Assembly: GCF_044324875.1 (NCBI RefSeq)
Contig: NZ_CP172185.1
From: Escherichia coli
Lineage (GTDB): Bacteria; Pseudomonadota; Gammaproteobacteria; Enterobacterales; Enterobacteriaceae
Direction: 5' to 3' (one strand)
DNA: 64,000 nt
Part shown: positions 30,792-53,275 of the stretch, in pieces
How the letters are laid out: the number at the start of each line of letters is the position of its first letter
Numbering within the stretch: position 1 is the stretch's first letter
Translations under genes and position numbers: made by a program
The notes under the pieces: generated by a model
Database searches by the model: none
What the model was told of the DNA's origin: nothing
What the model saw: only the letters and a program-made list of their open reading frames with translations

Positions 30792-30961
30792 GAATATTTT
30801 TTGGTAAGCGTCAAACATGCGCGTTCTGGTTGTGCTTAGCCGGAACCTGTGCGAGCACGATGCCGTTACGTGAAAGGCATCGTGCTATGAAGGGAGATTC
30901 TATCGATGTGGTCAATGGAAGACGGTCACCTGGGATCAATCCGTCTCTATGGTTTATGCAC

Positions 30962-31048
30962 AAAAAATAAGCCCGTGTAAGGGAGATTACACAGGCTAAG
31001 GAGGTGGTTCCTGGTACAGCTAGCATTTTATGGGTTATGTTTTTCAGC
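30962..31048 (-). ncRNA. cyaR: CyaR (RyeE) Hfq-dependent sRNA
   Basis: Minus-strand sequence gctgaaaaacataacccataaaatgctagctgtaccaggaaccacctccttagcctgtgtaatctcccttacacgggcttatttttt matches CyaR as I remember it, including the terminator hairpin and U-tail. Confidence 0.9.
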
Positions 31049-31079
31049 GAAACAGATGATAACCTTAATAAATGCAGCT

Positions 31080-31101
31080 GTATGTGATCGGTTTCTAAGA
31101 A
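31080..31101 (-). promoter_or_regulatory. Probable CRP site of the cyaR promoter (centred near -41.5)
   Basis: tgtgatcggtttctaa (TGTGA half-site at 31083-31087) about 41 bp upstream of the CyaR 5' end; -10 tatcat 7 nt upstream of the start. Confidence 0.5.
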
Positions 31102-31132
31102 TTTTCCATCCGGGAAAAATAATCGAAATTAA

Positions 31133-32494
31133 TCACTTACCGTGGGGGTTACGCGTGGTTTCCCCGGAGAAATTACGCATCAGCAGCGCGTAATTTAGCT
31201 CAAGATCCTGCGGCACCGGGATCCACACAGTATAACCATCGCCCGGTGCGACCGGCATTGCTTCGCCTTTGGCGTTTTCCATGTGCTCAAGGGTAAAGTT
31301 AATGTTCCCTTGCGGCGTCATCAGCTCAAGGCTGTCGCCAACGGAGAATTTATTTTTCACCGCTACCGCCGCGAGGTCGCCCTTGCGCTCACTGGTAAAC
31401 TCACCAACAAACTGCTGGCGGTCAGAAACTGAATAACCGTATTCGTAGTTCTGATAATCGTCGTGAGTATGACGACGCAGGAAACCTTCGGTATAGCCAC
31501 GATGCGCCAGACCTTCCAGGGTTTCCAGCAGGCTGGTATCGAATGGTTTTCCCGCAGCTGCGTCATCGATAGCTTTACGGTAAACCTGCGCGGTGCGTGC
31601 GCAATAGTAGAAAGATTTGGTACGGCCTTCGATTTTCAGCGAATGCACGCCCATTTTGGTCAGGCGTTCAACATGGGCGATGGCGCGCAGATCTTTCGAG
31701 TTCATGATGTAAGTGCCGTGCTCATCTTCAAACGCGGTCATATACTCGCCCGGACGCTGGGCTTCTTCGATCATAAACACTTTGTCGGTTGGTGCGCCGA
31801 TCCCCAGCGTCGGTTCAACGTTTTGCACCGGAATCGGTTCGTACTTGTGTACGATGTTGCCGACGTCATCTTCTTTCCCTTCCTGGACGTTATACTCCCA
31901 GCGGCAGGCGTTGGTGCAGGTGCCCTGGTTCGGGTCGCGCTTGTTGATATAGCCAGAGAGCAGGCAGCGACCGGAGTAGGCCATGCACAGCGCGCCGTGA
32001 ACGAAGATTTCGATCTCCATATCTGGCACCTGATTGCGGATCTCTTCAATCTCTTCCAGTGACAGTTCGCGAGAGAGGATCACGCGGGTCAGACCCATTT
32101 GCTGCCAGAATTTCACCGTCGCCCAGTTCACGGCGTTAGCCTGTACTGAGAGATGGATCGGCATTTCAGGGAAGTGCTCGCGCACCAGCATAATCAGCCC
32201 TGGATCAGACATAATCAGCGCATCCGGCCCCATTTCCACCACCGGTTTCAGGTCACGGATAAAGGTTTTCAGCTTGGCGTTGTGCGGTGCAATGTTGACC
32301 ACGACATAAAACTTTTTCCCCAGCGCGTGGGCTTCATTGATGCCGAGCTGAAGATTTTCGTGGTTAAATTCGTTGTTGCGCACACGCAGGGAGTAACGCG
32401 GCTGGCCCGCATAAACAGCATCTGCGCCATAAGCGAAAGCGTAACGCATATTTTTCAGCGTTCCCGCCGGGGAAAGGAGTTCCGGTTTAAACAT
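31133..32494 (-). CDS. yegQ: Peptidase U32-family protein
   Basis: 453-aa ORF MFKPELLSPAGTLKNMRYAFAYGADAVYAGQPRYSLR... Confidence 0.9.
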   Translation of the reverse strand: MFKPELLSPAGTLKNMRYAFAYGADAVYAGQPRYSLRVRNNEFNHENLQLGINEAHALGKKFYVVVNIAPHNAKLKTFIRDLKPVVEMGPDALIMSDPGLIMLVREHFPEMPIHLSVQANAVNWATVKFWQQMGLTRVILSRELSLEEIEEIRNQVPDMEIEIFVHGALCMAYSGRCLLSGYINKRDPNQGTCTNACRWEYNVQEGKEDDVGNIVHKYEPIPVQNVEPTLGIGAPTDKVFMIEEAQRPGEYMTAFEDEHGTYIMNSKDLRAIAHVERLTKMGVHSLKIEGRTKSFYYCARTAQVYRKAIDDAAAGKPFDTSLLETLEGLAHRGYTEGFLRRHTHDDYQNYEYGYSVSDRQQFVGEFTSERKGDLAAVAVKNKFSVGDSLELMTPQGNINFTLEHMENAKGEAMPVAPGDGYTVWIPVPQDLELNYALLMRNFSGETTRNPHGK

Positions 32495-32695
32495 AATTCT
32501 CTCGTTCTGATGACAGGTCAGATCCGCTTCACCTGATGAAGCGGCCAGGGGAGTGCCCCCACTTTAAGGGCGGGCATTGTAGCGCAATCGTCGGGGTTGG
32601 CTCCAGTGTAATTGTGATGAGCTTTTCGATGCCTGGCGTACAATTGACATCAGAATTGAGTATATTTACGACCGTGAATGCTAAGGAGTTAAAAC

Positions 32696-33301
32696 ATGTG
32701 GATGTTAAAGAAGGGAATCACGCTGGCTCTGTTGGTTCTGTTTTCTCTGCCCGCTACTGCCGGTCTTTCGCTGGAGGAGACTGCTCGTAAGGTGATTATC
32801 GGCTTTCAGCAAAAAGATGCTCAATTAATCAACTCGTTAATTGATAAAAAAACGGGGTTGTATGTTCTCTTCCAGCGTGGCGCTTCGATGGATGTCGAAA
32901 ATTTTAAGTCAATTGATTTTAAAACGCCTGTTCCCGAGTATTTGCTGTGGCCTTCGGCAGGGGAACATATTCCGCGAGATGAAGAGTTTGATAAGAAAAC
33001 TATCCCGGAATTTGACTGTGAACGTGGCTGGAATAAGCACGGATATTTTATTAGCAGCAGCGATACACACCATAAAGTCAGCCGTAATTTGGTCTTCACG
33101 CAGATGTTTGGTTCACCGCGAAACACTATTTCTGATGCGCAGATTGCCGCAGCGCGTCGAATGGAGTACGGGGCCGTGCGTGTGGTCGCTGCGCCAGAAG
33201 GGGGTAGCGATGGACTGGTATTTTATTTAAGTCAACTTTACGGTTATGACCGTGACTGGTATCTGACGGTGGTGGATCAGATTGGTGATTGTGGGGCGTG
33301 A
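32696..33301 (+). CDS. Hypothetical secreted protein (201 aa), unknown function
   Basis: Strong RBS aaggag 7 nt upstream; predicted Sec signal peptide MWMLKKGITLALLVLFSLPATA; two Cys in mature part; not recognised as a K-12 gene. Confidence 0.6.
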   Translation: MWMLKKGITLALLVLFSLPATAGLSLEETARKVIIGFQQKDAQLINSLIDKKTGLYVLFQRGASMDVENFKSIDFKTPVPEYLLWPSAGEHIPRDEEFDKKTIPEFDCERGWNKHGYFISSSDTHHKVSRNLVFTQMFGSPRNTISDAQIAAARRMEYGAVRVVAAPEGGSDGLVFYLSQLYGYDRDWYLTVVDQIGDCGA

Positions 33302-33331
33302 TAAAGATTTATTCGCCCGCAAGCAGTGATG

Positions 33332-34732
33332 CTATTTAAAAGGTATGTAACCCCTTAATCTGTTGTGAAGTTCCGGATTGCGGGTAAAAAGCGCCTGAAG
33401 TTGCTGACGCTGAAGAGCATTCGGTTGAATGCCCGAAAGATTGAAATTGCGTTGCCATATCGCGAGCTGTTTACCTGCAAATTCTTCAGTTAGCTTGTGT
33501 TGCGATTGCAGAAGAAGAATTAAACCGTCCCATTTGTTCAAGTTATGATACAACCGACAATATGCGCAAGCATGTTTAACTGACGGTGCGTTTTCCAGCA
33601 ACTGACGTATTTCCTCGAACGTGAGCGGAACTCGACACCATACACAGATGTTAACCATAAATCGAAGCCCGGAGGCGTCCGGGTTAGCTAGTGTGGTCAG
33701 AATAATCCCTTTGACACCACCATCAGGATTGGCTTTCGCAAGAATATACATAGCGGCTAATCGCAGTGGGAATACATCCTGTGATAATCCCCATTCAGCC
33801 AGTTTTAAAATATTGGCATCATGAATGGAGTCCAGCCCGTATAAAGCTGCCCGGCGCTGTGAGGGAGTATATTCAGTCGAGGTGACAACATGACGCCAGA
33901 ATTGCGCAACATCCATGACGTCATTAAGCATGTTTTTAGCGCGTAGACGGATCAACATATTGTTATCCAGCAGTAATGCGCTGTACAGAGCCGGAGGAAT
34001 TTCTATAGCTCGGTCAGTAAGGCTAAACAACGTTGCTTGTCGAATACGCGGCCAGCGGTCTTTTAACAGACGAGTTAATACCGCTTCGCTTAACGATAAT
34101 TGTTGACGCAGCCAGTGGGTGACTGCCAGCATTCGTAAACCTTCGTCGGGCTGCTTGAGTATTAAAAGCAGCGAAGATTCATCATTAAAGTAGCCATATT
34201 CAATCAGCGTTTGTAATACTGCGCGGGAAAGTTTTTTATCAGGGCAAGTAAGCCAGCACGTTAATTGCGGGCGGTTATTTTCTTCCAGCAAGAAGCTCAG
34301 TATCTCGTTTACAAATGCACGATGATCGTAACGCTGGCATTGGAGAAGGTTACGTATCATGGGAAGATTAACCGCAAATGCCGCTGCATTCTTATCCTTC
34401 TTTAAATGACGTAACGCTATGGTTGCAGCAAGGCGAACCTCTTTTACCCAGTCATTAGCTGCAAGTAATAATTCTTCTATAGCTGCAACATCCTCTTTTT
34501 GTCCCAGACATTGCACGGCCTTTTCTCGTATATATCCATTGTGGTGATGGGTAAGCTGGCAAAGAACCAGAGTATCGTTGAGATCACAATCATGCGCTAT
34601 ATAATTGCCTGGATCGGCTATCATCGCCTGGAGTTGTTGCTGGATAAGAAATAATTCACAGTCAACAGAATTATTCATTTCGACGTTAAACAAAACCCTG
34701 CGTGTAAATAATGTACGCAATCCTTTGAGCAT
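33332..34732 (-). CDS. Hypothetical cytoplasmic protein (466 aa) with HEAT/armadillo-like repeats, unknown function
   Basis: Long ORF with recurring alpha-helical repeat motifs (IREKAVQCLGQ, VRLAATIALRHL, LRMLAVTHWL, QRRAALYGLDSI, LRLAAMYILAKA); aagga RBS; no nucleotide-binding motifs seen. Confidence 0.6.
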   Translation of the reverse strand: MLKGLRTLFTRRVLFNVEMNNSVDCELFLIQQQLQAMIADPGNYIAHDCDLNDTLVLCQLTHHHNGYIREKAVQCLGQKEDVAAIEELLLAANDWVKEVRLAATIALRHLKKDKNAAAFAVNLPMIRNLLQCQRYDHRAFVNEILSFLLEENNRPQLTCWLTCPDKKLSRAVLQTLIEYGYFNDESSLLLILKQPDEGLRMLAVTHWLRQQLSLSEAVLTRLLKDRWPRIRQATLFSLTDRAIEIPPALYSALLLDNNMLIRLRAKNMLNDVMDVAQFWRHVVTSTEYTPSQRRAALYGLDSIHDANILKLAEWGLSQDVFPLRLAAMYILAKANPDGGVKGIILTTLANPDASGLRFMVNICVWCRVPLTFEEIRQLLENAPSVKHACAYCRLYHNLNKWDGLILLLQSQHKLTEEFAGKQLAIWQRNFNLSGIQPNALQRQQLQALFTRNPELHNRLRGYIPFK

Positions 34733-34854
34733 AATTTTCCTTATCAGTTATGAGGAGAAAACTCATTTCATGATTAATAATTTCTTGAGGGATAGTAACT
34801 CTGTGGTGAGAGAAAATAAAGCCGGACGCCAACAACCCACGCCCGGCATCGTAA

Positions 34855-35187
34855 TTACGTATTGTCTTTCACCGTCTGGCTTGTGCCATTGGCTTTAACG
34901 GAGGCAATTCCGGTTTCACGAGATTGCGCGGTGGCGTACATCTGGCTGGAGCCGATAATTTGATGATTGGCGGCTTTCAGATTGAAATAGAATTTGCCGT
35001 TGCTTGCCGTTTTTTTCTCATAGCGTTCTTCTTGCGGGCTGTTGCTACGCACCGATGCGATGCCCTTTTCCGCAGAGGCTTTTGAGGTATACAGCTCGCT
35101 GGTGAGGATAGTCTCACCATTGCCCGCTTTTAGCACAAACCGGAACTGATTATCACTGCTCTTACTGAGTTCAAACCAACCAGCCAT
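34855..35187 (-). CDS. yegP: YegP (UPF0339 / DUF1508 tandem-repeat small protein)
   Basis: ORF 34855..35226; start taken at MAGWFELSKSSDNQFRFVLKAGNGE (110 aa). Confidence 0.85.
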   Translation of the reverse strand: MAGWFELSKSSDNQFRFVLKAGNGETILTSELYTSKASAEKGIASVRSNSPQEERYEKKTASNGKFYFNLKAANHQIIGSSQMYATAQSRETGIASVKANGTSQTVKDNT

Positions 35188-35366
35188 AATGACTCCTTGA
35201 TTGAAATTGCGTATCGAAAACAGCATCTAAAAGAACTGTTTACCGATTAAAGTATGAGCGATTTTCAGGCGGTTGCCAGGGCGGAGAGATAATGTCAGTT
35301 TGCTGACCATGCGCGGGATAATGTTGCCGGATGCGGCGTGAATGCCTTCTCCGGCAGGTAAAAATG

Positions 35367-36089
35367 TTAAACGATGCGGCAGGCGTCGGCTTCCCAGCGG
35401 TAACCGACGCCGTAAACGGCACGGATAAAAGACTGTTCGGCGTCGAGAGATTCCAGCTTGCGACGCAGGTTTTTAATGTGGCTGTCGATGGTGCGGTCGG
35501 TTACTACGCGGTAGTCGTCATAAAGATGATTGAGCAATTGCTCGCGGGAGAACACTTTTCCTGGTTCATGAGAGAGCGTTTTCAACAGACGAAATTCCGC
35601 AGGCGTCAGGTCAAGCATTTTACCGCGCCATGAAGCCTGAAAACGACCTTCGTCGATAATCAACGGGCTTTCGGCATCCTGTTGCTGAAGTTCGCGTTGC
35701 GGTTTGCAACGGCGCAAAATGGTTTTGACGCGCGCTACCACTTCCCGTGGGCTGTACGGTTTGCAGATGTAGTCATCTGCGCCAATTTCCAGCCCCAGCA
35801 GGCGGTCGATCTCTTCGATTTTTGCTGTCACCATCACGATCGGAATGTCAGAAAAACGACGAATCTCCCGGCACAGCGTCAGGCCATCGGTGCCAGGAAG
35901 CATAAGATCCAACAGAATCAGATCCGGTGGTGTCTGGCGTACATATGGCAGTACCTGATCGCCGTGGCTAATCAACGTTGGCGCATAGCTCGCAGCACGC
36001 AGATAATCAATGAGTAACTGCCCCAGCTTCGGTTCATCTTCCACGATCAAAATACGCGGTGTGTTTTCGTCGATTGGTAACTCGGTCAT
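35367..36089 (-). CDS. baeR: OmpR-family response regulator BaeR
   Basis: 240-aa ORF; receiver domain ([10 protein letters not shown]...D) plus winged-helix output; 4-nt overlap with baeS. Confidence 0.93.
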
Positions 36090-37489
36090 ACTTCTCTCTG
36101 TAAATCCCGTTCCAGCGGTAACTCTACTGTAATGCTTACCCCGCCAAAAGGCGAATGGGCAGCAATAATGCGACCATTATGTGCTTCAACAATGTTCAGG
36201 CAAATCGCCAGCCCCAGCCCGGAACCGCCGCTGGCTCGGTTGCGGGAACCTTCGGTGCGATAAAAACGTTCAAACAATTTTTGTAGCTGATCGTCACTGA
36301 CGCCCGGCGCGCTGTCGGCAAAGGTCAGTCGCACCGTTTTGTCGTGCTGCTCGGCAGAGATTTTCAGGCTACCGCCGCTGTCAGTGTAGCGCAGGCTGTT
36401 TTCCAGTAAGTTATTGAATAACTGCATTAAACGGTCGCGATCGCCAAATACGGTAATACTGTCTGGCAGGGAAAATTGCAGTTTCAGGCCACGGCTGGCG
36501 AATCGTTCGCGAAATGCGCCGCCCGCCACTTCCAGCAGTGGGATCAAATCTACCGGTGCTTTTTGATAGGCGAGAGCGCCTTCATCAGACATCGACAACT
36601 GATGGAGATCGTCAACCAGTTTGGTCAGTGTACCGACCTCCGCCTGTAAAGACGCCACCGTCTCCGGCGTGAATTTACGCACGCCATCCTGAATGGCTTC
36701 CAGTTCACCGCGCAGCACCGCTAATGGCGTACGCAGTTCGTGAGAAATATCGGCCATAAAATCGCGCCGCATTTGCTGGTTTTTCTCCAGCGTGCTGGCA
36801 AGCTGGTTGAAGTCTTGCGCCAGTTTGCCCAGTTCATCTTCACTGGTGGGTGTCACGCGGGTAGTGAAATCGCCCGCCGCCAGTTTGTGCGTGCCGTCCA
36901 CCAGCCGTTTGACCGGGGCCAACAGACCACGCGCCAGCAGAAAGGTGGCGAGTGCCGCGAGTAACGTAGCCAGGGCGACAATCAGCCAGCTGGTTTGCCG
37001 CTGTTGTTTATCGAAATTGATATCAGTATTGCGGGTCAGTCGCTCAACAGGGGAGGCAATCACCGCACCCACTTCCGCACCGTTGACCAGAATGGGTCGC
37101 CGTGTACCGTCAGGTGGAATCGGCGCTCGCGGACCAACCAGCACTTTGTTGTTTTGATCGATCACCCAGAACTGAGTACGCCAGCCGTGCGGAGGCATAC
37201 CCGGGCCGGGTTTATCTTCCGAATTATCGTGTTCAAATGAACGCAGGATCTGAAAGACAAAGCGATCGTTGTTGCGCAGGAAGCGCCAGTTGCCATGCTG
37301 CGCATACTGCTCGCCAAGCGCATCACTTAACAGCTGTAATCGCTGTTCATTGCCGTGTTTGATGTAATCAATAAAGCCACGCTCAAAACTGATACGCACC
37401 GCCCAGTGCATACTGATCAGCAAGACAATGCAGGTGGCGAAAATCGCCAGAAACAGTTTGCCGGTAATACCGGGTCGCCAGAACTTCAT
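36086..37489 (-). CDS. baeS: Envelope-stress sensor histidine kinase BaeS
   Basis: 467-aa ORF, two TM segments, H-box (HELRTPL), HATPase domain. Confidence 0.93.
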
Positions 37490-38901
37490 TGCGCGCTCCT
37501 TTTTCGCCGCGAAATAGCTACATTTTGATGCGTATCGTTCGGCACTCTGGCAAAGATGAACGCCGGAAGGGCGATGATAAACGCCATGCTAAGCCAGGTG
37601 TACATAAAGACGGTTTGTGTGGTGCCGCTGTCGACGCTGACATGCTGCGAACCAAAAAGTCCCAGCAACAGCCCGGCGATAGTGACGCCGATACTCATCG
37701 ACAATTGCATAATCATCGACAGCAGGCTGTTTCCGCTGCTCGCCAGATTGTCCGGGAGATCTTTCAGCGTCAGGGTGTTCATGGAGGAGAAACGGGTCGA
37801 GTTGACCATCCCTTGTAAAAACAGGACGAACGGCAAAACGTAGTACCAGCCCAACAGAGCGGTAGTCATAAACAATAGGGTGACCAGCGACAGACCCAGC
37901 GTGGTCGCTACCAGTACCCGACGATAACCAAAGCGATTCACTACCTGTACCACAATTCGCTTCATCCCCATGCTGCCGAGCACCATCGGGATCATCATCA
38001 GTCCGGCATGAAACGGTGAGAAGCCAAGGCCAATTTGCAGGAAAACCGGCGTCATAAAGGGCAACATGCCGCTACCGATACGTCCGGCAAAACTCCCCGC
38101 CAGGCCCAGCGAAAAGGTACGAGTACGGAACAGTTTCAGACTGAAAAGAGCGCGGTTGTTATTTCTGGCGTGCAGCAGATAAAGCACCAGTGCTACCACG
38201 CCAACTGCGACCAGGCCAGCAATCGCCAGCGGCGATAAACCTGTACCTTTACTGCCGTCCAGCGCCAGGGTTAATACCGCCATGCCAACCGCCAGCAATA
38301 AAAAGCCGGAGAGATCGAAGCGCCGCGTCTGCATGGTATAGTTCGGCATTAACATCAATGTGGCGATCGCGCCAATAATCCCCACCGGAATGTTGATTAA
38401 AAAGATCCAGTGCCACGACGCATATTCCACCAGCAGACCGCCGAGCGCCGGACCGAGCAGCGGACCGACCTGACCGGGTAACGTGACAAAGGTCATCGCC
38501 GCCATATACTGCTCGCGCGGTACGATTTTCATCACCGTCAACCTGCCGACCGGCACCATCATCGCACCGCCAACGCCCTGTAACGCGCGTGCCAGCAACA
38601 GTTCGTTCAGCGTGCCGGAAAGCGCGCAAAACAGTGAACCGAGAGTAAACAGTACGATGGCGGTAAAGAAAATATTGCGCACGCCGACTTTGTCCGCCAG
38701 CCAGCCGCTGGCGGGCAGCATCACCGCCACGGTCAGCACATAAGAGACAATGACCATGTGCATATGCAACGGACTTTCCCCGAGGCTTTGCGCCATTGAG
38801 GGAAGGGCGGTGTTTACGATGGTGGTGTCCAGCGACTGCATAAAGAAGCCGAAAGCCACAATCCACAATTGCCAGCGGGTGCTGTCGGGAAGATCTGTCA
38901 T
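37486..38901 (-). CDS. mdtD: MFS transporter MdtD
   Basis: 471-aa polytopic membrane protein between mdtC and baeS. Confidence 0.9.
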
Positions 38902-41900
38902 TTACTCGGTTACCGTTTGTTTAGGTTTACGCGAAAAACGCAGCCGCAGACGGTCGAAAAAGAGATACACCACCGGCGTGGTATACAGCGTCAGAAGCTG
39001 GCTCATTACCAGACCGCCGACAATGGTGATCCCCAGGGGTTGCCGCAGCTCCGAGCCGTCACCGCCCGACAATACCAGCGGCAGCGCACCAAACAGCGCC
39101 GCCAGGGTAGTCATCATAATCGGGCGAAAACGCAGCAGACAGGCCTGGAAAATAGCTTCCTGCGGCGTGAGGTTACCGTGCCGTTGGGCTTCAAGCGCAA
39201 AATCGACCATCATAATGGCGTTTTTCTTCACGATGCCGATTAATAGCATGATCCCTATCAGGGCGATTAGGCTGAACGGGGCATTGAACAGCTCCAGCGC
39301 CAACAGCGCTCCAACGCCCGCCGAGGGCAGGGTGGAGAGAATCGTCAGCGGATGTACGTAACTCTCGTAAAGGATACCCAGCACGATATACACCGTGGCG
39401 ATGGCGGCGATAATCAGGATCACCTGCGAGTTCATCGTCTCCTGGAACACCTGCGCCGTGCCGGCAAAACTACCGCGCACCGTCGAAGGCACACCAAGCT
39501 GGGTCATTGCGCGATCGATCGCCGCACTGGCGTCCGAGAGCGATTTCCCGGTCGGCAGGTTAAACGAAATGGTCGAGGCCGCCGATAATCCCTGATGATT
39601 CACCGACAGCGGAGCATTCGCCGGTTGCCATTTAGCGAAATACGACAGCGGGATCGCTTTTCCTTCGTTATTGATAACGAACATTTTTTCCAGCGCACTG
39701 ATGTCCTGGGTATAGCGCGGATCCACTTCCATCACCACTTTATACTGGTTCATCGGCTGGTAAATGGTCGAGATTTGTCGCTGACCGAAGGCGTTATTTA
39801 ACAGGCTGTTGGCGGCCTGCACGTCGATTCCCAGCCGTGCCATAGTGTCGCGGTCGTAAACCAGATTCATCTCCGCGCCGTTATCCTGCTGGTCGGAGTT
39901 CACGTCCGCCAGTTCCGGCAATGTCGCCAGTTTTTTGCGGATTTTCGGTTCCCATTCGCGCAGTGCCGCCAGGTCGTCGGACAGTAACGTGTACTGATAG
40001 CTGGCGTTCGACTGACGTCCGCCAACGCGAATATCCTGTACCGCCATCAGGAACAGATTCGCCCCTGGTTCTTTCGCCAGCTTCACGCGCAGACGGTCGA
40101 TAATTTGCTGCGCCGTTTCGCTGCGTTCGCCGCGTGGCTTGAGGGTGATAAACATCATCCCGCTGTTCACCCGCGAACCGCCGGTAAATCCGGTGACATT
40201 ATCCACTGCCGGATCGTCACGGATAATTTTCATGAAATCCTGCAACTTACCGCGCATCGCCTGAAACGAAATACTCTGATCCGCCTGTATCCCGCCCATC
40301 AACACGCCGGTGTCCTGCTCCGGGAAGAAGGTTTTCGGGATCGAGATATACAGCCAGATATTCAAAGCAATGGTGCCAAGCAGCACCACGCCCACCAGAC
40401 GGGTATGATTAAGCCCCCATTTCAGCGACTTACCATAGCCTTGTTGCAGGGCTACCAACATGCGACCAAAACCACGTAGTCGCTTTTGCTCGCGCGGCTT
40501 GCTGGCTTTTAGCATCCAGCCGCACATCATCGGCGTTAGCGTCAGGGAAACCAGCAACGAAATCCCAATGGCGACAGAAAGCGTCACGGCAAATTCGCGT
40601 AACAGTCGGCCCGGCAATCCGCCCATCAACAGCAGCGGCAGGAACACCGCCACCAGTGACAGACTCATCGACAGCACCGTAAAACCGACTTCGCGAGTGC
40701 CTTGCAGCGCGGCCTGTAGCGGTTTCATCCCCGCCTCCAGATGACGGGCGATGTTTTCCAGCACCACGATGGCGTCATCCACCACGAAACCAGTAGCGAT
40801 GGTGAGCGCCATTAACGAAAGATTATTGAGACTGAATCCGCACAGGTACATCGCCGCAAACGTACCAATCAGCGAAACCGGCACCGCAACGGCGGGAATA
40901 ATAGTGGCGCGACCCGAGCGCAGGAATAAAAAGACCACCAGAATGACCAGCGCCACCGAGATAATCAGCGTTTGCTCGACTTCCTCCAGCGAGGCGCGAA
41001 TAGTGGGGGAGCGATCCTGGGCAATTTGCAGATCAATCGCCGCCGGAATGGTCTCCTGCAACTCCGGTAATTTTGCCCGGATGCTGTCAACCGTCTGGAT
41101 AATATTGGCTTCCGGCAGCTTGCGGATCATCAGCAAAATAGCCGGTTTGGCGTTGGTCATCCCGGCGTTGCGCACATCCTGCACTGAGTCGGTCACCGTC
41201 GCCACATCGCCCAGACGAACCGCGCCGCCGTTGTTGTAATGAATAATCAGCGGCTGATATTCAGCGGCGGTTTTCAGTTCATCGTTAGTCTGGATCTGCC
41301 AGCGGTGAGTGCCATCTTCCAGCGCCCCCTGCGGTTTACGCACGTTGGCATTGCTGATGGCAGTGCGAACATCGTCCAGCGACACGCCCTGATTAAACAG
41401 CGCCTGCGGATTCAGCCCGACGCGTACGGCGGGCAGTGAGCTGCCGCCGACATCGACATCACCAACACCGTCGATTTGCGAAATCGTCGGAGCCAGCTGC
41501 GTCGAGGCGAAATCGTACAGTTCACCCTGCGAATAAGTATCGGATGTCAGCGTGAGGATCATTATTGGCGCATCCGACGGGTTCGCTTTGCGATAGGTCG
41601 GACGGCTTGGCATCCCGCTGGGCAGCAAACTTTGCGCGGCGTTGATCGCCGCTTGCACATCGCGCGCTGCGCCGTTGATATCGCGGTCAAAATCAAACTG
41701 CAAAATAATGCGCGTGCTGCCGAGCGAACTGCTGGAGGTCATTTCACTGACCCCGGCAATGCGCCCAAGTGAGCGCTCCAGCGGCGTGGCAACGGAAGAC
41801 GCCATTGTTTCTGGTGACGCACCGGGCAGCGAGGCGCTGACCATAATCACCGGAAAATCGACCTGCGGCAGCGGGGCGACCGGCAGCATACGGAAGCCCA

Positions 41901-44900: not shown

Positions 44901-45102
44901 TGACATCCGGGCTCGCACCTGGGTAGAGCGTGACTACCTGAATGGTCGGATAGTCCACTTCCGGCAGCGCCGAAACGGGCAGGGCTCGATAACCGATAAT
45001 CCCGGCGAGTAAGATCGCCACCATCAGCAGCGTGGTGGCGACAGGACGCATAATAAACAGGCGCGACGGGCCGCCTGTGCTGCTCGGGGGTAACACCTGC
45101 AT
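41980..45102 (-). CDS. mdtB: RND multidrug efflux pump subunit MdtB
   Basis: 1040-aa RND permease; ATGA overlap with mdtA stop. Confidence 0.93.
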
Positions 45103-46349
45103 CAGGAGCGTGCTCCTTTTTTCGCGTATTCGCGGCTGGTGGCTTTCTCTTCCGGAGTGGTGGCGCTCTGGGCTTCCACTACTTCCACTTTCGCCCCTTC
45201 GGTCAGGCGATCAATGCCGTCCGTCACTACGCGGTCGCCCGCAGAAATACCTGCGCGGATCACCACTTTCTGACTGTCCTGAATGCCCGGCGTCACCAGA
45301 TGTTTGCTGACCTTGTTTTCGCTATTCAGCACCCAGACAAAATGGCCTTCGTTGCCCATTTGCAGAGCGGCGGTGGGGATCACCACGGCGTTTTGTTCGG
45401 TGTCGACTAACATACGCGCGTTAACAAACTGATTGGGAAACAGCGCATCATCCTGATTATTAAAGCGGGCTTTCACTTTAATCGTACCGGTAGTGGCATC
45501 GATTTGGTTATCGAGACTTAACAGCGTGCCTTCACTTAATTTCTTCGAGTTGGTGCGATCCCAGGCTTCAACAACCAGCGGTTTTCCGGCTTTTTGCGCC
45601 TGTACTACGGTAGCGATATCGCTTTCCGGCAGGGTAAAGAGCAAATCGATAGGATGCGTCTGGGTGATCACCACGATCCCGGTGGTATCACCACTGGAGA
45701 TTTGGTTACCAACATCAACCTGCTTGAGACCAACGCGACCATCAACTGGTGCAGTAATACGGCTCCAGTCGAGTTGCAGCTGCGCGCTGGCGACGCTTGC
45801 TTCATCAGCCTTAATGGTGCCTTCGGTTTCACTGACCAGCGCTTGTTGGGCATCCAGTTCCTGACGAGATACGAGATTGGTTTTTGCCAGTTGCTGATAA
45901 CGCGCCAGGTCACGGCGGGCGTTGGCAAGCGTGGCTTTATCTTTTGCCAGTTGGCCCTGGGCTTGTGCTAATGCAACTTTGAACTGGCTGGGGTCAATTT
46001 CTGCCAGTAAATCGCCTGCTTTGACCTGCTGGCCTTCCTGGAAATGTAACGCTATCAGTTGGCCGTCCACGCGGCTGCGCACCGTAACGGTATTAGCGGC
46101 GGTAATGGTGCCAAGCCCGGTGAGGTAACGCGGAACTGCCTGTTCTACGGCGGTCGCCGCCTGAACCGGGGCTAATGGGCCGGAACGCATACCACGGCGA
46201 CCACCCGCTGGCGATTGCTGCGCTTGTTTCGTCGCCCCTGGGGCTGCACTCCGGGAGTCATTGCGGCCTTGCCAGAACCAGAATGCGGCGATGGCGGCGA
46301 TAACCACCACGATTACGATTACCCAACGGGATTTATAACTGCCTTTCAT
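45102..46349 (-). CDS. mdtA: Membrane fusion (periplasmic adaptor) protein MdtA
   Basis: ORF 45102..46496; start taken at [25 protein letters not shown] (415 aa). Confidence 0.9.
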
Positions 46350-46401
46350 CGTTAAGAGTTTCTCTTCCTGAAACGTTTCGCGGAATGATACTAGTGTAGC
46401 C

Positions 46402-46419
46402 AGCCAATAAGGGAGAAAA
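46402..46419 (-). promoter_or_regulatory. BaeR box in the mdtA promoter
   Basis: Minus-strand tttttctcccttattggc, close to the BaeR consensus as I recall it (TTTTTCTCCATDATTGGC), about 55 bp upstream of mdtA. Confidence 0.6.
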
Positions 46420-46579
46420 ATGGAGGAATTATGAAACACTGTCGGGAATCGTCTGAATGACGGGCACATTTGCGAGCACGCATCCAGTAATAACACATGA
46501 AACTATTTTATCTACGCGTTAGCGATAGACTGCTTGCATGGCGAAAGGAGGTAAGCCGACGATTTCAGCGGGACGCTGA

Positions 46580-46720
46580 AACGGGAAAGCCCCTCCCGAG
46601 GAAGGGGCCTTAAATAAGGAAAGGGTCATGATGAAGTGGATCATCATCGTGGTGCTCTTAGTGATTAGCTACCCAGCATACTAAGACTACCAGGGCGGGG
46701 GAAACCCCGCTCTACCCTCA
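46580..46720 (-). ncRNA. Putative Sib antisense sRNA, copy 1 (antitoxin of the overlapping ibs)
   Basis: Minus-strand promoter ttgaca-17-tacttt (weaker -10 than copies 2 and 3); terminator hairpin gcccct...aggggc then tttcccgttt; boundaries approximate. Confidence 0.45.
46628..46684 (+). CDS. Ibs-family small hydrophobic toxin, variant MMKWIIIVVLLVISYPAY (copy 1)
   Basis: 18-codon ORF at the same position in the repeat unit as the other two ibs genes. Confidence 0.6.
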   Translation: MMKWIIIVVLLVISYPAY

Positions 46721-46907
46721 CTCCTGAAAGTATGCCTTCACGATAAGATTGTCAATCTGCAGGCTTTGCAGTCTGCGATCCTGCCAGCAAATATTCTTTG
46801 CGAGACGTTACGCAATAATCACACTGGAAACTATTTTATCCGCAAGTCAGCGATAGACTGCATACAGGGCGAAAGGAGGTAAGTCGACGATTTCAGCGGG
46901 ACGCTGA

Positions 46908-47048
46908 AACGGGAAAGCCCCTCCCGAGGAAGGGGCCTTAAATAAGGAAAGGGTCATGATGAAGCTACTCATCATCGTGGTGCTCTTAGTCATAAGCTTC
47001 CCCGCTTACTAAGACTACCAGGGCGGGGGAAACCCCGCTCTACCCTCA
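46908..47048 (-). ncRNA. sibB: Putative Sib antisense sRNA, copy 2 (SibB-like)
   Basis: Minus-strand promoter ttgaca-17-taattt (-35 at 47078-47083, -10 at 47055-47060); terminator hairpin 46917-46936; boundaries approximate. Confidence 0.55.
46956..47012 (+). CDS. ibsB: Ibs-family small toxin MMKLLIIVVLLVISFPAY (IbsB-like)
   Basis: 18-codon ORF; matches my recollection of IbsB. Confidence 0.65.
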   Translation: MMKLLIIVVLLVISFPAY

Positions 47049-47237
47049 CTCCTGAAATTATGCCTTCACGATAAGATTGTCAATCCGCAGGCTTTGCAGT
47101 CTGCGATCCTGCCAGCAAATATTCTTTGCGAGTCGTTACGCAATAATCACAGAGGAAACTATTTTGTTCACGCGTTAGCGATAGACTGCATTCAGGGCGA
47201 AAGGAGGTAAGCCGACGATTTCAGCGGGACGCTGAAA

Positions 47238-47383
47238 CGGGAAACCCTCTCCCGGAGAAGAGGGCTTTTAATAAGGAAAGGGTTATGATGAAGCACGTCA
47301 TCATACTGGTGATACTCTTAGTGATTAGCTTCCAGGCTTACTAAGAACACCAGGGGGAGGGGGAAACCTCTCCCTAACCCTCA
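47238..47383 (-). ncRNA. sibA: Putative Sib antisense sRNA, copy 3 (SibA-like)
   Basis: Minus-strand promoter ttgaca-17-taattt (-35 at 47413-47418, -10 at 47390-47395); terminator hairpin ccctct...agaggg then tttcccgttt; boundaries approximate. Confidence 0.55.
47285..47344 (+). CDS. ibsA: Ibs-family small toxin MMKHVIILVILLVISFQAY (IbsA-like)
   Basis: 19-codon ORF. Confidence 0.65.
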   Translation: MMKHVIILVILLVISFQAY

Positions 47384-47564
47384 CTCCTGAAATTATGTCA
47401 CTCCGCCCTTAGTGTCAATCGACGGCTCTCCGTTCTTGCGAGGCGAATAGCAAAATTTTCTGCGCCGCCGGGCCTAATTCTGAAAGTTGCTTTGCCTGCT
47501 CATATTTCATTGTTGCAGTCGGTATGATACCGGACCTCAATAATTCTCTAAGAAAGGATTTCTT

Positions 47565-48224
47565 ATGAGCGAACAAATCACGTTTGCCACCAGCGATTTT
47601 GCCAGTAACCCGGAACCACGTTGCCCCTGCATTTTGCTGCTGGATGTTTCTGGTTCTATGAACGGTAGACCCATTAATGAACTTAACGCCGGATTGGTTA
47701 CCTTTCGCGATGAGCTGCTTGCCGATTCGCTGGCCTTAAAAAGAGTGGAACTCGGTATTGTGACGTTCGGCCCGGTGCATGTGGAACAACCCTTTACCAG
47801 CGCCGCTAATTTTTTCCCGCCCATCCTGTTTGCCCAGGGCGATACACCAATGGGGGCCGCCATTACCAAAGCCCTGGATATGGTTGAGGAGCGCAAACGT
47901 GAGTATCGCGCCAATGGTATTTCCTATTATCGCCCGTGGATTTTCCTGATCACCGATGGCGCTCCAACCGATGAGTGGCAGGCTGCCGCCAACAAAGTGT
48001 TTCAGGGGGAAGAAGATAAGAAGTTTGCCTTCTTTTCCATCGGTGTTCAGGGGGCGGATATGAAGACTTTGGCACAAATCAGCGTTCGTCAGCCTTTGCC
48101 ACTGCAGGGATTACAATTCCGTGAACTGTTTAGCTGGTTATCCAGTTCGCTGCGTTCGGTTTCCCGCTCCACGCCGGGAACGGAAGTTGTGCTGGAAGCG
48201 CCAAAAGGCTGGACGTCAGTGTGA
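47565..48224 (+). CDS. yegL: von Willebrand factor A (TerY-like) domain protein
   Basis: 219-aa ORF; MIDAS-type motif [11 protein letters not shown] near N-terminus; stop overlaps yegK start. Confidence 0.85.
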
Positions 48225-48982
48225 GCTGGCGTCTGGTCTATGCATCAACCGTTGGAACGTCGCACATCAGCGCGGACTTGCCTTGCCAGGATGCCTGCCA
48301 GATGCAGGTTGCCTGGTTAAATGACCAGCAGCCATTATTGTCGGTATTTGTCGCTGATGGCGCAGGCAGCGTCTCGCAGGGTGGCGAAGGTGCGATGCTC
48401 GCCGTCAATGAAGCGATGGCTTATATGTCGCAAAAAGTGCAGGGCGGGGAATTGGGGCTTAATGATGTCCTCGCAACGGACATTGTGCTGACCATTCGTC
48501 AGCGACTTTTTGCCGAGGCGGAAGCCAAAGAATTAGCGGTTCGCGATTTTGCCTGCACGTTTTTGGGATTGATTTCATCAGCTAATGGCACCTTGATTAT
48601 GCAGATTGGCGATGGCGGCGTGGTGGTAGATTTGGGTCACGGTCTGCAATTGCCTCTCACGCCGATGGTGGGTGAATATGCCAACATGACGCACTTCATT
48701 ACCGATGACGATGCTGTTTCCAGACTGGAAACTTACACCAGCACTGGGCGTGCGCATAAAGTTGCAGCATTTACGGATGGTATCCAGCGACTGGCGTTAA
48801 ATATGCTGGATAATTCTCCTCATGTGCCTTTCTTTACCCCGTTTTTCAATGGACTGGCGTCAGCAACGCAGGAACAACTCGATTTATTACCTGAATTGTT
48901 AAAGCAGTTTTTGTCCAGCCCGGCGGTAAACGAGCGTACGGATGATGATAAAACGTTGGCACTGGCGCTGTGGTTACCATGA
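48221..48982 (+). CDS. yegK: PP2C-family Ser/Thr protein phosphatase
   Basis: 253-aa ORF from GTG (GTGA overlap with yegL stop); acidic metal-binding residues typical of PP2C (VADGAG...DGGVV...FTDG). Confidence 0.8.
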
Positions 48983-50919
48983 AACCCACTTTATATACTG
49001 CTACTGGTGAGTGCGTTACGCCAGGCCGTGAACTGGGAAAAGGTGGCGAAGGCGCGGTTTATGATATCGAGGAGTTTGTCGATAGCGTCGCCAAGATTTA
49101 TCACACGCCGCCACCCGCCTTAAAACAGGACAAACTTGCCTTTATGGCTGCGACAGCTGACGCGCAATTGTTGAATTATGTCGCCTGGCCGCAGGCAACG
49201 CTTCACGGTGGACGAGGCGGAAAGGTTATCGGTTTTATGATGCCAAAAGTTTCTGGTAAAGAACCGATTCATATGATCTATAGCCCGGCACATCGTCGCC
49301 AACGTTACCCTCATTGTGCGTGGGATTTTCTACTCTATGTTGCGCGCAATATTGCTTCATCTTTTGCTACGGTTCACGAGCACGGGCATGTCGTGGGTGA
49401 CGTAAACCAGAACAGCTTTATGGTAGGCCGTGACAGCAAAGTGGTGTTGATTGATAGCGACTCCTTTCAGATTAACGCCAATGGCACGCTGCATTTATGC
49501 GAAGTCGGCGTGTCGCATTTTACGCCGCCAGAGCTGCAAACCTTGCCATCATTTGTCGGCTTTGAACGCACCGCGAATCACGATAATTTTGGCCTTGCGT
49601 TGCTGATTTTTCACGTCTTGTTTGGTGGGCGGCATCCTTATTCCGGTGTAACGCTTGTCTCTGATGCGGGTAATGCACTGGAGACGGATATTGCCCATTT
49701 CCGTTATGCCTACGCGTCAGATAATCAGCGACGTGGTTTAAAACCGCCGCCACGATCTATTCCGCTGTCGATGTTACCGGGCGATGTTGAAACCATGTTT
49801 CAGCAGGCATTCACGGAAAGTGGCGTGGCAACCGGGCGTCCGACGGCAAAAGCGTGGGTTGCGGCACTTGATTTACTACGCCAACAGTTAAAGAAATGTA
49901 CCGTTTCGGCAATGCATGTTTACCCCGGTCATTTGACTGACTGCCCGTGGTGTGCGCTGGATAATCAAGGCGTTATCTATTTTATTGATCTCGGCGAAGA
50001 GGTCATTACCACCAGCGGTGATTTTGTGCTGGCGAAAGTCTGGGCGATGGTGATGGCGTCAGTAGCACCGCCAGCATTGCAACTGCCATTACCCGATCAT
50101 TTCCAACTGACTGGCAGGCCGCTTCCTTTAGGCCTGTTACGGCGCGAATACATCATTCTGATTGAGATCGCACTGTCAGCGTTATCGCTGTTGCTTTGCG
50201 GCCTTCAGGCAGAACCGCGTTATATTATTTTGGTTCCTGTGCTGGCGGCTATCTGGATTATTGGCAGCCTGACAAGCAAAGCGTACAAAGCAGAAATCCA
50301 GCAACGCCGTGAGGCGTTTAATCGCGCGAAAATGGACTATGACCATTTAGTCAGCCAGATCCAACGGTTGGGCGGGCTGGAAGGTTTTATCGCCAAACGG
50401 ACGATGCTCGAAAAAATGAAGGACGAAATTCTTGGGTTACCGGAAGAAGAAAAGCGCGATCTGGCAGCACTTCAGGACACCGCAAGGGAACGGCAGAAGC
50501 AGAAGTTTCTGGAGGGATTTTTTATTGATGTTGCCTCTATTCCCGGCGTTGGCCCTGCGCGTAAAGCGGCGTTACGGTCCTTTGGTATTGAAACGGCGGC
50601 AGACGTTACCCGACGGAGCGTTAAGCAAGTTAGAGGTTTTGGTGATCATCTGACCCAGGCGGTTATCGACTGGAAAGCGAGTTGCGAACGCCGTTTTGTT
50701 TTCAGGCCGAACGAAGCGGTAACGCCTGCAGACAGACAAGCGGTAATGGCAAAAATGGCCGCCAAACGACATCGGCTGGAATCGACGTTGACTGTCGGTG
50801 CGACAGAGTTGCAGCGATTCCGCCTTCATGCTCCAGCACGGACCATGCCGTTGATGGAACCGTTACGTCAGGCGGCAGAAAAACTGGCTCAGGCGCAGGC
50901 AGATTTAAGCCGCTGCTGA
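48970..50919 (+). CDS. yegI: Membrane-anchored Ser/Thr protein kinase-like protein with C-terminal helix-hairpin-helix region
   Basis: 649-aa ORF overlapping yegK by 13 nt; N-terminal kinase-like region (GKGGEGAVYDI, HGHVVGDVNQNSFMV, LIDSDSFQ), two hydrophobic segments, C-terminal IPGVGPARKAALRSFGIETAADV (HhH-like). Confidence 0.8.
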   Translation: MVTMKPTLYTATGECVTPGRELGKGGEGAVYDIEEFVDSVAKIYHTPPPALKQDKLAFMAATADAQLLNYVAWPQATLHGGRGGKVIGFMMPKVSGKEPIHMIYSPAHRRQRYPHCAWDFLLYVARNIASSFATVHEHGHVVGDVNQNSFMVGRDSKVVLIDSDSFQINANGTLHLCEVGVSHFTPPELQTLPSFVGFERTANHDNFGLALLIFHVLFGGRHPYSGVTLVSDAGNALETDIAHFRYAYASDNQRRGLKPPPRSIPLSMLPGDVETMFQQAFTESGVATGRPTAKAWVAALDLLRQQLKKCTVSAMHVYPGHLTDCPWCALDNQGVIYFIDLGEEVITTSGDFVLAKVWAMVMASVAPPALQLPLPDHFQLTGRPLPLGLLRREYIILIEIALSALSLLLCGLQAEPRYIILVPVLAAIWIIGSLTSKAYKAEIQQRREAFNRAKMDYDHLVSQIQRLGGLEGFIAKRTMLEKMKDEILGLPEEEKRDLAALQDTARERQKQKFLEGFFIDVASIPGVGPARKAALRSFGIETAADVTRRSVKQVRGFGDHLTQAVIDWKASCERRFVFRPNEAVTPADRQAVMAKMAAKRHRLESTLTVGATELQRFRLHAPARTMPLMEPLRQAAEKLAQAQADLSRC

Positions 50920-50931
50920 GCCATTTTTCAA

Positions 50932-52284
50932 TTAACGAAACACCACTTCCGCCCAGCGTGCCAGCCCGGCGGTGACGGAGCCAAAGTCATCGCCGCCTGC
51001 AATCGGAATGCCCGGCAACTGTTCTGCCAGCGCTTTTTTAATCAGCGGTGAACGGGCGCTACCGCCGGTCAGATAGATAACATCCGGTTTTTCCTGGGCG
51101 TTATCCAGCGCCAGTTGCACCTGTTCCAGAATCCGCGCCAGTGGCTGGTTGAGGGCGCTTTCCAGCCCTTGCTGGCTAATCAGCGTAGCCAGTTCATCGC
51201 TGATAAACGGCAGTGAGGCGCGGGTTTCCGCTACGCTTGAAAGCGCAATTTTGCTCTCTTCTGCGCTACGTACCAGGCGATAGCTTAAACGCTGACGCCA
51301 GACTTTCTGTAACAGGGCCACTTTTTCCGGTTCGCGGGCATCGCGTACCAGATCGTTAAGCAGACGACCGTTGGCACTACTGTAGAAATCACTTTGCGCA
51401 GGTACGTCGTTGATGGCAACCGCATTCCACCACGGCAGAATCGGCAGGGCGATGCCTTTTTCGGTTTCGCCACCCATGCCCAGTAACGGCATCAGGTTTT
51501 TAAACGCCAGTGCGATATCCAGATCGTTACCGCCAATACGGCAACCACTGTGACCCAGCAGGCTGGCTTCACGATCGAGACGCGAACGCCACTGCGGCCC
51601 CATCAGCAGCAATGAACAGTCAGTCGTACCACCGCCGATATCCACCACCAGCACCCGTTTTTCTTCCTGCAAGGTGGCTTCGTAATCCAGCCCAGCCGCG
51701 ACCGGCTCGTACTGGAATACCACATCCTTAAACCCGGCACGCTTCGCCGCGCGTTCCAGAATCCCCTGCGCCTGGGTGTTTGCTTCATCGCCGCCCAGCC
51801 CCTGGAAGTTGATAGGGCGACCAATCACCGCCTGAGTAATCGCTTCTGGCAGCTGTGCCTGCGCCTGCTGGCGAATGTGCAACATCATTGCGCAGACCAG
51901 ATCCTCAAACAGCGCTACCTGCTGCGGTTTTAAGCCGCTGGCACCGAGGAACGATTTTGGTGATTTCACAAACCACACTTCTTCTGGATCATCAATGTAC
52001 TGTGCCAGTGAGGAAAGACCGAACTGCACGCTTTTCGCCGTAACATCGATATATTCTTCGCGGTTATAACGAATCGCCCGACGCAGCAGCGCCTGCGTTT
52101 CATCGTCGTCTGCCGGAACATCATGATGGCGGTACAGCCATTCGCTTACCGCTTCACGCGTTGGCGCGCAAAGCATTGAAGGCAGCAGCGTGCTGTCGTT
52201 TTCCATTTTCAGTAATTGCGGCTTACCGTCGCGCATGACCGCCACTGAACAGTTTGCTGTACCGTAATCAAAACCAATAAACAC
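50932..52284 (-). CDS. yegD: Hsp70-family (actin-fold) ATPase YegD
   Basis: ORF 50932..52347; start taken at GTG giving (M)FIGFDYGTANCSVAVMRDGKP, which aligns with the DnaK N-terminal phosphate-1 motif; 450 aa. Confidence 0.85.
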   Translation of the reverse strand: MFIGFDYGTANCSVAVMRDGKPQLLKMENDSTLLPSMLCAPTREAVSEWLYRHHDVPADDDETQALLRRAIRYNREEYIDVTAKSVQFGLSSLAQYIDDPEEVWFVKSPKSFLGASGLKPQQVALFEDLVCAMMLHIRQQAQAQLPEAITQAVIGRPINFQGLGGDEANTQAQGILERAAKRAGFKDVVFQYEPVAAGLDYEATLQEEKRVLVVDIGGGTTDCSLLLMGPQWRSRLDREASLLGHSGCRIGGNDLDIALAFKNLMPLLGMGGETEKGIALPILPWWNAVAINDVPAQSDFYSSANGRLLNDLVRDAREPEKVALLQKVWRQRLSYRLVRSAEESKIALSSVAETRASLPFISDELATLISQQGLESALNQPLARILEQVQLALDNAQEKPDVIYLTGGSARSPLIKKALAEQLPGIPIAGGDDFGSVTAGLARWAEVVFR

Positions 52285-52417: not shown

Positions 52418-53275
52418 ATGTATACCCTGAACTGGCAGCCGCCGTATGACTGGTCGTGGATGTTGGGATTTCTCGCCGCCCGTGCGGTGAACGGTGTGGA
52501 AACGGTCGCTGACGATTATTATGCCCGTAGTCTGGCGGTGGGCGAATATCGCGGCGTGGTGACTGCTATTCCGGATATAGCCCGCCATACTCTGCACATA
52601 AATTTAAGTGCAGGTTTAGAACCAGTTGCCGCAGAGTGTCTGGCGAAAATGAGCCGCCTGTTTGATCTGCAATGTAACCCGCAGATTGTTAACGGTGCGT
52701 TGGGCAAGTTAGGCGCGGCGCGGCCCGGATTGCGTTTACCCGGCAGTGTTGATGCTTTTGAGCAGGGCGTGCGGGCGATTTTAGGCCAGCTGGTGAGCGT
52801 GGCGATGGCGGCAAAATTGACCGCCAGAGTGGCACAGCTTTATGGCGAACGGCTGGATGATTTTCCGGATTATGTCTGCTTCCCCACGCCTCAGCGGCTG
52901 GCAGCAGCCGACCCGCAGGCATTAAAAGCGTTAGGTATGCCGTTGAAACGGGCAGAGGCGCTGATTAATCTGGCAAATGCGGCGCTGGAGGGCACCTTAC
53001 CAATGACAATTCCGGGCGACGTAGAGCAAGCGATGAAAACGCTGCAAACTTTTCCGGGTATCGGGCGCTGGACGGCGAATTATTTCGCCTTACGTGGCTG
53101 GCAGGCGAAAGATGTTTTCCTGCCGGATGATTATCTGATTAAACAGCGATTTCCGGGAATGACACCGGCACAAATCCGCCGTTATGCCGAACGCTGGAAG
53201 CCCTGGCGTTCTTATGCGCTGTTGCATATCTGGTATACGGAAGGCTGGCAACCAGACGGAACGGACGAATTGTAG
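52418..53275 (+). CDS. alkA: 3-methyladenine DNA glycosylase II
   Basis: 285-aa ORF; HhH-GPD superfamily; adjacent to yegD and dgcE as in E. coli. Confidence 0.9.
   Translation: MYTLNWQPPYDWSWMLGFLAARAVNGVETVADDYYARSLAVGEYRGVVTAIPDIARHTLHINLSAGLEPVAAECLAKMSRLFDLQCNPQIVNGALGKLGAARPGLRLPGSVDAFEQGVRAILGQLVSVAMAAKLTARVAQLYGERLDDFPDYVCFPTPQRLAAADPQALKALGMPLKRAEALINLANAALEGTLPMTIPGDVEQAMKTLQTFPGIGRWTANYFALRGWQAKDVFLPDDYLIKQRFPGMTPAQIRRYAERWKPWRSYALLHIWYTEGWQPDGTDEL

Follow-up and report, generated by a model that had tools for sequence, protein, structure and literature searches.

An uninterrupted yegL–pphC–yegI kinase–phosphatase triad in Escherichia coli and its relation to the yegJ-bearing form of K-12

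Results

Organization of the locus

The analysed stretch of DNA, hereafter the window, comprises 64,000 nt of the Escherichia coli contig NZ_CP172185.1 (assembly GCF_044324875.1). Three genes lie in it head to tail, all on the plus strand, namely, yegL (47565–48224; 219 aa, with a vWA domain, the orthologue being named yegL in RefSeq), pphC, also known as yegK (48221–48982; a PP2C-type Ser/Thr phosphatase of 253 aa with a GTG start), and yegI (48979–50919; a membrane Ser/Thr kinase of 646 aa, whose longest open reading frame runs from 48970). The stop codon of yegL and the GTG start of pphC share 4 nt (GTGA, 48221–48224), and the same holds for the next junction, ATGA (48979–48982, plus strand), where the yegI ATG (48979–48981) overlaps the pphC TGA (48980–48982); the latter is a likely site of translational coupling.

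The triad is flanked by sib/ibs–mdtABC on one side and yegD–alkA on the other. On the yegL side, mdtA (45102–46496, minus strand) is separated from yegL by three SIB RNAs (46613–47418, minus strand). On the opposite side, yegD (50932–52284, minus strand; Hsp70/actin-like) converges with yegI, starting 12 nt from the yegI stop, and is followed by alkA (52418–53275, plus strand). The longest open reading frame of yegD extends to 52347; the 450-aa form given here agrees with the RefSeq yegD. The SIB RNA/ibs toxin modules occupy 46613–46755, 46941–47083, and 47270–47418 (Rfam RF00113, 139–150 bits), that is, three tandem modules between mdtA and yegL compared to two (sibA, sibB) in K-12, and the third one accounts for 328 nt that the window has in excess of K-12. 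Other strains have three or four ibs genes; hence, the copy number is variable.

The interval between pphC and yegI contains no gene, and the list of the window's open reading frames holds none with family support there. Scans with consensus promoters and terminators yielded nothing above the shuffle expectation at this junction, a simple promoter search of the region preceding yegL was negative, and no clear Shine–Dalgarno sequence precedes either of the two candidate yegI starts (GTG at 48970 and ATG at 48979).

In a comparison with 5,426 complete E. coli genomes, the top identity was 98.4–98.5% both for the locus (47500–51000) and for a second part of the window (20000–40000). The latter contains a full-length IS1 (26509–27276; 99.2% identity over 768 nt to IS1A of strain 510016), which explains the many multi-copy and plasmid matches obtained with that query.

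Protein families and similarity to the TerY-P triad

The vWA domain of YegL is recognized by Pfam models VWA (PF00092, E 8.7e-10) and VWA_2 (E 2.4e-7) over 47565–48221. PphC matches PP2C_2 (PF13672, E 1.1e-51) and is 94–96% identical to E. coli PphC clusters; its PP2C-like phosphatase activity has been demonstrated, and it removes phosphate from autophosphorylated YegI (10.1101/303594), YegI itself being an inner-membrane Ser/Thr kinase capable of autophosphorylation (10.1101/819920). No Pfam kinase model matched YegI under E 0.01, and there were weak kinase matches in PADLOC and NCBIfam. The kinase elements are nevertheless invariant among 30 homologues, namely, the G-x-GG-E-G loop, K39, the H-G-D141-x-N motif, and D159. 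The N-terminal kinase domain is directly followed by a C307-x5-H313-x8-C322-x2-C325 motif, invariant in 30 out of 30 homologues, then by hydrophobic segments and a C-terminal helix-hairpin-helix (a match to HHH_5).

This composition resembles the TerY-P triad of Anantharaman, Iyer & Aravind (2012), which, in the part of its description quoted in PMC11090510, consists of a vWA protein, a PP2C phosphatase, and a kinase with a C-terminal zinc ribbon. In both cases a vWA protein, putatively TerY-like in the case of YegL, comes first, the PP2C phosphatase second, and the Ser/Thr kinase third, and the genes form a tight cassette read in one direction. The invariant Cys/His motif of YegI lies where the zinc ribbon is expected and may correspond to it. 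The differences are the extra membrane segments and the C-terminal helix-hairpin-helix of YegI (10.1101/819920), and the lack of adjacent tellurite-resistance or restriction genes at the window locus. Thus, judged by domain content, yegL–pphC–yegI would work like a TerY-P triad; a defence role is not claimed. A TerY-P-like stand-alone anti-phage system (Gao et al., 2020), as far as its description is cited in PMC11090510, shares the three-domain logic and differs in that its kinase carries a C-terminal OB fold. At E ≤ 0.001, PADLOC-DB v2.0.0 gave no match for YegL, PphC, or YegJ, and for YegI the matches were limited to PD-T4-6 (E 8.5e-5) and MkoA (E 5.8e-4), both over the kinase core. The triad of the window does not match the PADLOC defence-system models.

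Comparison with the K-12 locus

The first-pass annotation of the window placed a small, divergently oriented gene, yegJ, between yegI and yegK of K-12, and named a direct yegK/yegI overlap in K-12 as the observation that would speak against it. In MG1655, the order is yegD(+), yegI(−), yegJ(+), pphC(−), yegL(−), sibA/ibsA, sibB/ibsB, mdtA(+), so that this placement is correct and yegJ does intervene. The other half of the claim, that the triad of the window is contiguous, with no gene between yegK and yegI, agrees with the open reading frames and with a search (tblastn and blastn) of the K-12 yegJ segment against the whole window, in which only the 40-nt 3' end of pphC was found. The pairwise alignment suggested by the annotation contains a single gap of 735 nt in the window, located exactly at the junction.

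This gap is the net result of a replacement. The stretch swapped in K-12-type genomes, as delimited by alignments, is 48974–49023 of the window (50 nt, plus strand), to which 785 nt of the K-12 locus correspond (L001, 6720 down to 5936). Outside the junction, yegL, pphC, yegI, yegD, and mdtA are orthologous to those of K-12 (b2073–b2070 and flanks) and about 95% identical, whereas in place of the 50 nt K-12 has a hairpin, yegJ, and a divergent promoter region. Locally, the identity is 82% in the 150-nt bin of the junction versus 98.7–99.3% in the flanking bins.

Read from pphC, the K-12 segment comprises the two final pphC codons, which encode AE in place of LP in the window; a 64-nt spacer with a perfect 11-bp hairpin (arms at L001 6674–6684 and 6693–6703; −21.4 kcal/mol, z −2.9); yegJ on the opposite strand (153 aa, DUF2314, E 2.2e-25); a 199-nt spacer with 29% G+C, forming an AT-rich promoter region; and a different 5' end of yegI, two codons longer, encoding the N-terminus MKTNIKVFTSTGELTTLG. 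The first 18 residues of K-12 YegI (648 aa, starting with MKTNIKVF) are unlike those of the window protein (646 aa, starting with MKPTLY). By its PphC C-terminus the window is not of the K-12 type, as its PphC ends with WLP, and that of the K-12 type ends with W-[AT]-E.

In K-12, the yegI–yegJ region contains divergent RpoD-dependent promoters for both genes and is bound by H-NS (PMC3946193). Overproduced YegJ binds the catalytic half of RNase E, damages the envelope, and arrests growth; the same 2026 study of RNase E interactions lists YegJ as cytoplasmic, the recovered fragments starting from residue 16 (PMC13232886). The beginning of K-12 YegJ, MKKILLMLSLLFFTTAGFSEV (the first 30 codons, L001 6186–6275), resembles, by eye, a secretion signal peptide.

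Distribution of the two forms in E. coli

The locus was found in 5,416 of the 5,426 complete E. coli genomes. The window-type junction, counted as full coverage of a 121-nt probe spanning the junction of the window, is present in 3,471 of the 5,426 (approximately 64%), and the yegJ segment in 1,934 (approximately 36%); the two classes sum to 5,405, out of 5,416 genomes with the locus. Hence, the arrangement seen in the window is the majority form in E. coli. The yegJ carriers originate from human, poultry, pig, cattle, frog, and soil, and their identity to K-12 ranges from 100% down to about 94.5%; with such a spread of sources and sequences, they are more than laboratory derivatives of K-12.

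The presence/absence polymorphism of yegJ has already been published, and the form found in the window is common. Rajagopalan, Nagle & Dworkin (2018) described pphC immediately upstream of yegI in REL606, and yegJ between them, in opposite orientation, in MG1655 (10.1101/303594); the ATGA overlap has been noted for REL606 and O157:H7 (Rajagopalan & Dworkin, 2020; 10.1101/819920). The loci of E. coli B REL606 and O157:H7 are identical to that of the window in genes, order, orientation, the ATGA overlap, the lack of yegJ, and flanks, the differences being allelic only. Göpel et al. (2026) reported the same polymorphism and stated that yegJ occurs only in K strains (PMC13232886); given the 1,934 carriers, this is too narrow.

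Diversity at this locus is unusually high within E. coli, with about 93–98% identity between strains, pphC and yegI differing by 2–7%. In E. coli E69 (L032, 2980–5678), pphC is about 80% identical at the DNA level to all other Escherichia alleles, yegI is approximately 92–93% identical, and the YegL protein 97% identical; thus, as the comparison of E69 with positions 48221–50919 of the window illustrates, the locus is mosaic as well as diverse.

The ancestral arrangement

A profile of PphC relatives was scanned against one genome per GTDB species, yielding 48 pphC loci. The comparison relied on this species survey and on E. marmotae. The 48 loci come from Escherichia, Klebsiella, many Burkholderiales, Pseudomonas, Chromatium, Frankia, and Paenibacillus, as well as from cyanobacteria, Acidobacteriota, Planctomycetota, Chloroflexi, and Verrucomicrobia. 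In all of them (48 out of 48), the order yegL–pphC–yegI on one strand is retained, and in none (0 out of 48) is there a YegJ homologue within 4 kb. The pphC–yegI junctions, considered in the 46 loci with two measurable gene ends, mostly fall between −17 and +29 nt; 14 of these 46 have an overlap of 4 nt, the others having spacers of a few nucleotides. Within Escherichia, the contiguous triad without yegJ, located beside yegD, is seen in E. whittamii, two Escherichia sp., E. coli E69, and E. marmotae.

The protein ends point in the same direction. The family consensus of the PphC C-terminus is W-x-P, to which W-L-P of the window conforms and W-A-E of K-12 does not; likewise, the N-terminus of YegI from the window matches the family consensus, and that of K-12 YegI does not. 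The suggestion of the first-pass annotation that the arrangement in the window is ancestral and that K-12 carries an insertion is therefore supported by the outgroups, the 48 loci, both protein ends, and the majority of E. coli genomes. Since neither the 48 loci nor the Escherichia outgroups have yegJ, the uninterrupted triad is, on comparative grounds, best regarded as ancestral, and the K-12 form as derived.

Several loci in this set deserve mention in their own right. In two Escherichia sp., yegI is apparently disrupted, with an in-frame stop after codon 459 in one (L002, 4759–6699) and a break of the alignment after residue 514 in the other (L003, from 4509), which could reflect either genuine degeneration of the kinase or a sequencing artefact. 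In Klebsiella spallanzanii (L005), the triad is located away from yegD; over all genomes searched, E. coli plasmids gave two or three matching triad places; and PphC homologues of equal length, 60–65% identical, occur in very distant bacteria. From these three observations, the yegL–pphC–yegI cassette appears to move horizontally.

Origin of the yegJ form

Five yegJ haplotypes spanning the observed diversity have identical insert boundaries, as expected from a single origin. Their inserts have diverged as much as the flanking genes (94.4–96.3% identity), and the flanks of yegJ-positive and yegJ-negative genomes are interleaved; for instance, yegI of the yegJ-positive strain MZ1211 is 98.1% identical to that of the window and 95.9% identical to that of K-12. 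This combination implies that the event is old and that its surroundings have since been shuffled by recombination. Thus, the yegJ form is most readily described as the product of a single, old event.

The closest YegJ outside E. coli is that of Superficieibacter electus (75% amino acid identity). In S. electus and a related metagenome scaffold (L050, 3453–5462; L051, 3375–7273; L052), the gene order is yegD, yegJ, mdtA–mdtB–mdtC, without yegL–pphC–yegI, and the nucleotide identity to K-12 is 75% for yegJ, 77–79% for yegD, and 76.5% for mdtA. From these similar distances, yegJ looks like an old tenant of the yegD–mdtA interval and may not be simply foreign DNA. Beyond yegJ itself and its ribosome-binding region, the yegJ flanks of K-12 and Superficieibacter could not be aligned above shuffled controls. 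Low GC content as a sign of recent arrival of yegJ was rejected, as yegJ of Superficieibacter is low as well (45–47% versus 57–59% in the flanks). At the ends of the K-12 segment, a search for transposon signatures yielded only a weak inverted match of 21 nt (71%) and no target duplication. More remote YegJ homologues (55–67% identity) were discarded, as their neighbours are unrelated and include no triad.

The position of yegJ within the triad can be explained in several ways. One is that the yegJ haplotype did not arise by insertion within E. coli and instead came in as a piece of a foreign triad in which yegJ was already nested, with recombination at the conserved sequences encoding a 10-residue motif of PphC and the GRELGKGGEG motif of YegI. 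The K-12 YegI N-terminus fits the family pattern [LV][YF]T[SA]xGxxxx[IL]G; the 5' end of K-12 yegI is only about 65% identical to the window at the DNA level, with many synonymous differences, which is the distance of homologues from other orders (E. whittamii and K. spallanzanii being 77–78% identical to the window); directly beyond the two conserved motifs, identity jumps to about 99%; and searches of the segment ends revealed neither IS-like terminal repeats nor a target duplication. The location of both boundaries at the most conserved coding motifs suggests that the segment may have entered via recombination with an already interrupted foreign triad. On the other hand, no donor with pphC–yegJ–yegI was found, YegJ clusters at at least 90% identity are all from E. 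coli, the other yegJ contexts examined have no triad, the one example that seemed divergent consists of bisulfite-converted E. coli reads, and the compared segment of approximately 50 nt makes the distance estimates weak. We consider the import possible, at somewhat less than an even chance; it refines, and does not contradict, the explanation by insertion into an ancestral triad.

A broader version assumes two ancient haplotypes coexisting over the whole history of E. coli, the yegJ form having been patched from a triad of some unsampled enterobacterium into which yegJ, long resident in the yegD–mdtA interval, had been taken up, and having persisted by rewiring the kinase/phosphatase switch. 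If that were true, yegI would have gained its own H-NS-silenced promoter, and the toxic, RNase E-binding YegJ would have come under divergent control. No intermediate or donor for the nesting of yegJ inside the triad was found, and we regard this scenario as rather doubtful.

The candidates for such an intermediate all failed. Two Logan assemblies (L063 and L064, from SRR12931398 and SRR12931396) seemed to represent a divergent K-12-type locus, being collinear with K-12 yegI–yegJ–pphC–yegL at 76–78% identity; their alignments are gap-free and show C-to-T mismatches exclusively, which identifies them as bisulfite-converted reads of E. coli K-12. Such contigs can mimic divergent homologues in protein searches. 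The seemingly divergent “E. coli” YegJ sequences P0143 and P0214 trace back to the ordinary K-12-type locus, in assemblies riddled with frameshifts. A 64-nt relic (H50) proved to be a K-12-type locus from which yegJ had been removed by IS1, a secondary event; in strain 510016 (L053, 1950–4317), one IS1 splits pphC and a second replaces yegJ, leaving the 64-nt pphC–yegJ spacer. A donor search with the 40-residue N-terminus of K-12 YegI returned only short, uninformative E. coli fragments.

The reverse polarity, with yegJ inside the triad being the older state in Escherichia and the overlap in the window resulting from its deletion, draws on the yegJ orthologue in the yegD–mdtA interval of Superficieibacter and its scaffold relative, on its distance to K-12 being near those of yegD and mdtA, on the insert diversity in E. 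coli being as deep as that of the flanks, and on the possibility of secondary loss of yegJ, as mediated by IS1 in strain 510016. However, the deletion would have had to restore three features with precision, namely, the ATGA junction typical of the family, the W-L-P C-terminus of PphC, and the YegI N-terminus seen in other Escherichia; no outgroup examined has yegJ inside the triad; the Superficieibacter loci, lacking the triad, are silent on the order pphC–yegJ–yegI; and no remnant of yegJ was found in the window. This makes the deletion very unlikely, and we retain the uninterrupted triad as the ancestral state.

The start codon of yegI

The first-pass annotation placed a 13-nt overlap between yegK and yegI. 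This holds for the longest open reading frames (48221–48982 and 48970–50919) and does not hold for the functional overlap, which, with the ATG at 48979, is 4 nt. The 13 nt stem from a GTG in the yegI frame (48970–48972, plus strand) that is probably not a start codon. In a genome with a 100% identical junction (L062), the NCBI annotation puts the start of yegI 4 nt inside pphC, yielding 646 aa, and yegI of E. marmotae (L068) is annotated in the same manner. Homologues from other species align from the Met encoded at 48979, all having 16 residues before the GRELGKGGEG loop, and those with a spacer in place of the overlap begin at the equivalent Met, again 16 residues before GRELG. In E. whittamii and E. 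coli E69, the ATG is replaced by GTG, itself a possible start codon, so that the 4-nt overlap is kept. Thus, the conserved start of yegI, also annotated in RefSeq, is, by all these comparisons, most plausibly the ATG at 48979.

The GTG at 48970 is in frame with no intervening stop, opens the longest reading frame, and is found in other Escherichia loci as well, yet it is contained in the CTG-TGG codons encoding Leu-Trp251 of PphC, and the codon of Trp251, invariant in the family, accounts for its conservation; given also the GTG starts of E. whittamii and E69, the spacer-bearing homologues, the choice of ATG 48979 by PGAP, and the ATGA overlap in the literature (10.1101/819920), a functional overlap of 13 nt with translation from GTG 48970 is extremely unlikely.

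Discussion

Combining these lines of evidence, we conclude that the window very probably contains an intact ancestral TerY-P-type triad, and that the K-12 form was derived via one old replacement of 50 nt by 785 nt, which would uncouple yegI from pphC.

The anatomy of the locus suggests how the two forms would differ. In the form represented by the window, yegL, pphC, and yegI would be transcribed as a single mRNA, the GTGA and ATGA overlaps would couple translation across the triad, and ribosomes terminating at the end of pphC would re-initiate at the overlapping ATG of yegI. The kinase and its phosphatase would thus be made together, at a fixed ratio. The K-12 segment would break the link between pphC and yegI by means of the hairpin that follows pphC and of the AT-rich stretch, bound by H-NS, that carries the divergent sigma-70 promoters. 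Published groups have found no condition of robust expression of the locus (10.1101/303594; 10.1101/819920; PMC13232886).

Beyond what has been reported in the literature, yegJ extends past the K strains to approximately 36% of complete E. coli genomes, the carriers being from many hosts, and Superficieibacter, where a yegJ orthologue occupies this interval and the triad is missing, reopens the history of the K-12 form. K-12 is the usual laboratory model, and it likely carries the derived, uncoupled locus; hence, the results on expression and stoichiometry obtained with this strain may not hold for the majority of natural E. coli, which is of practical value for studies of YegI/PphC signalling.
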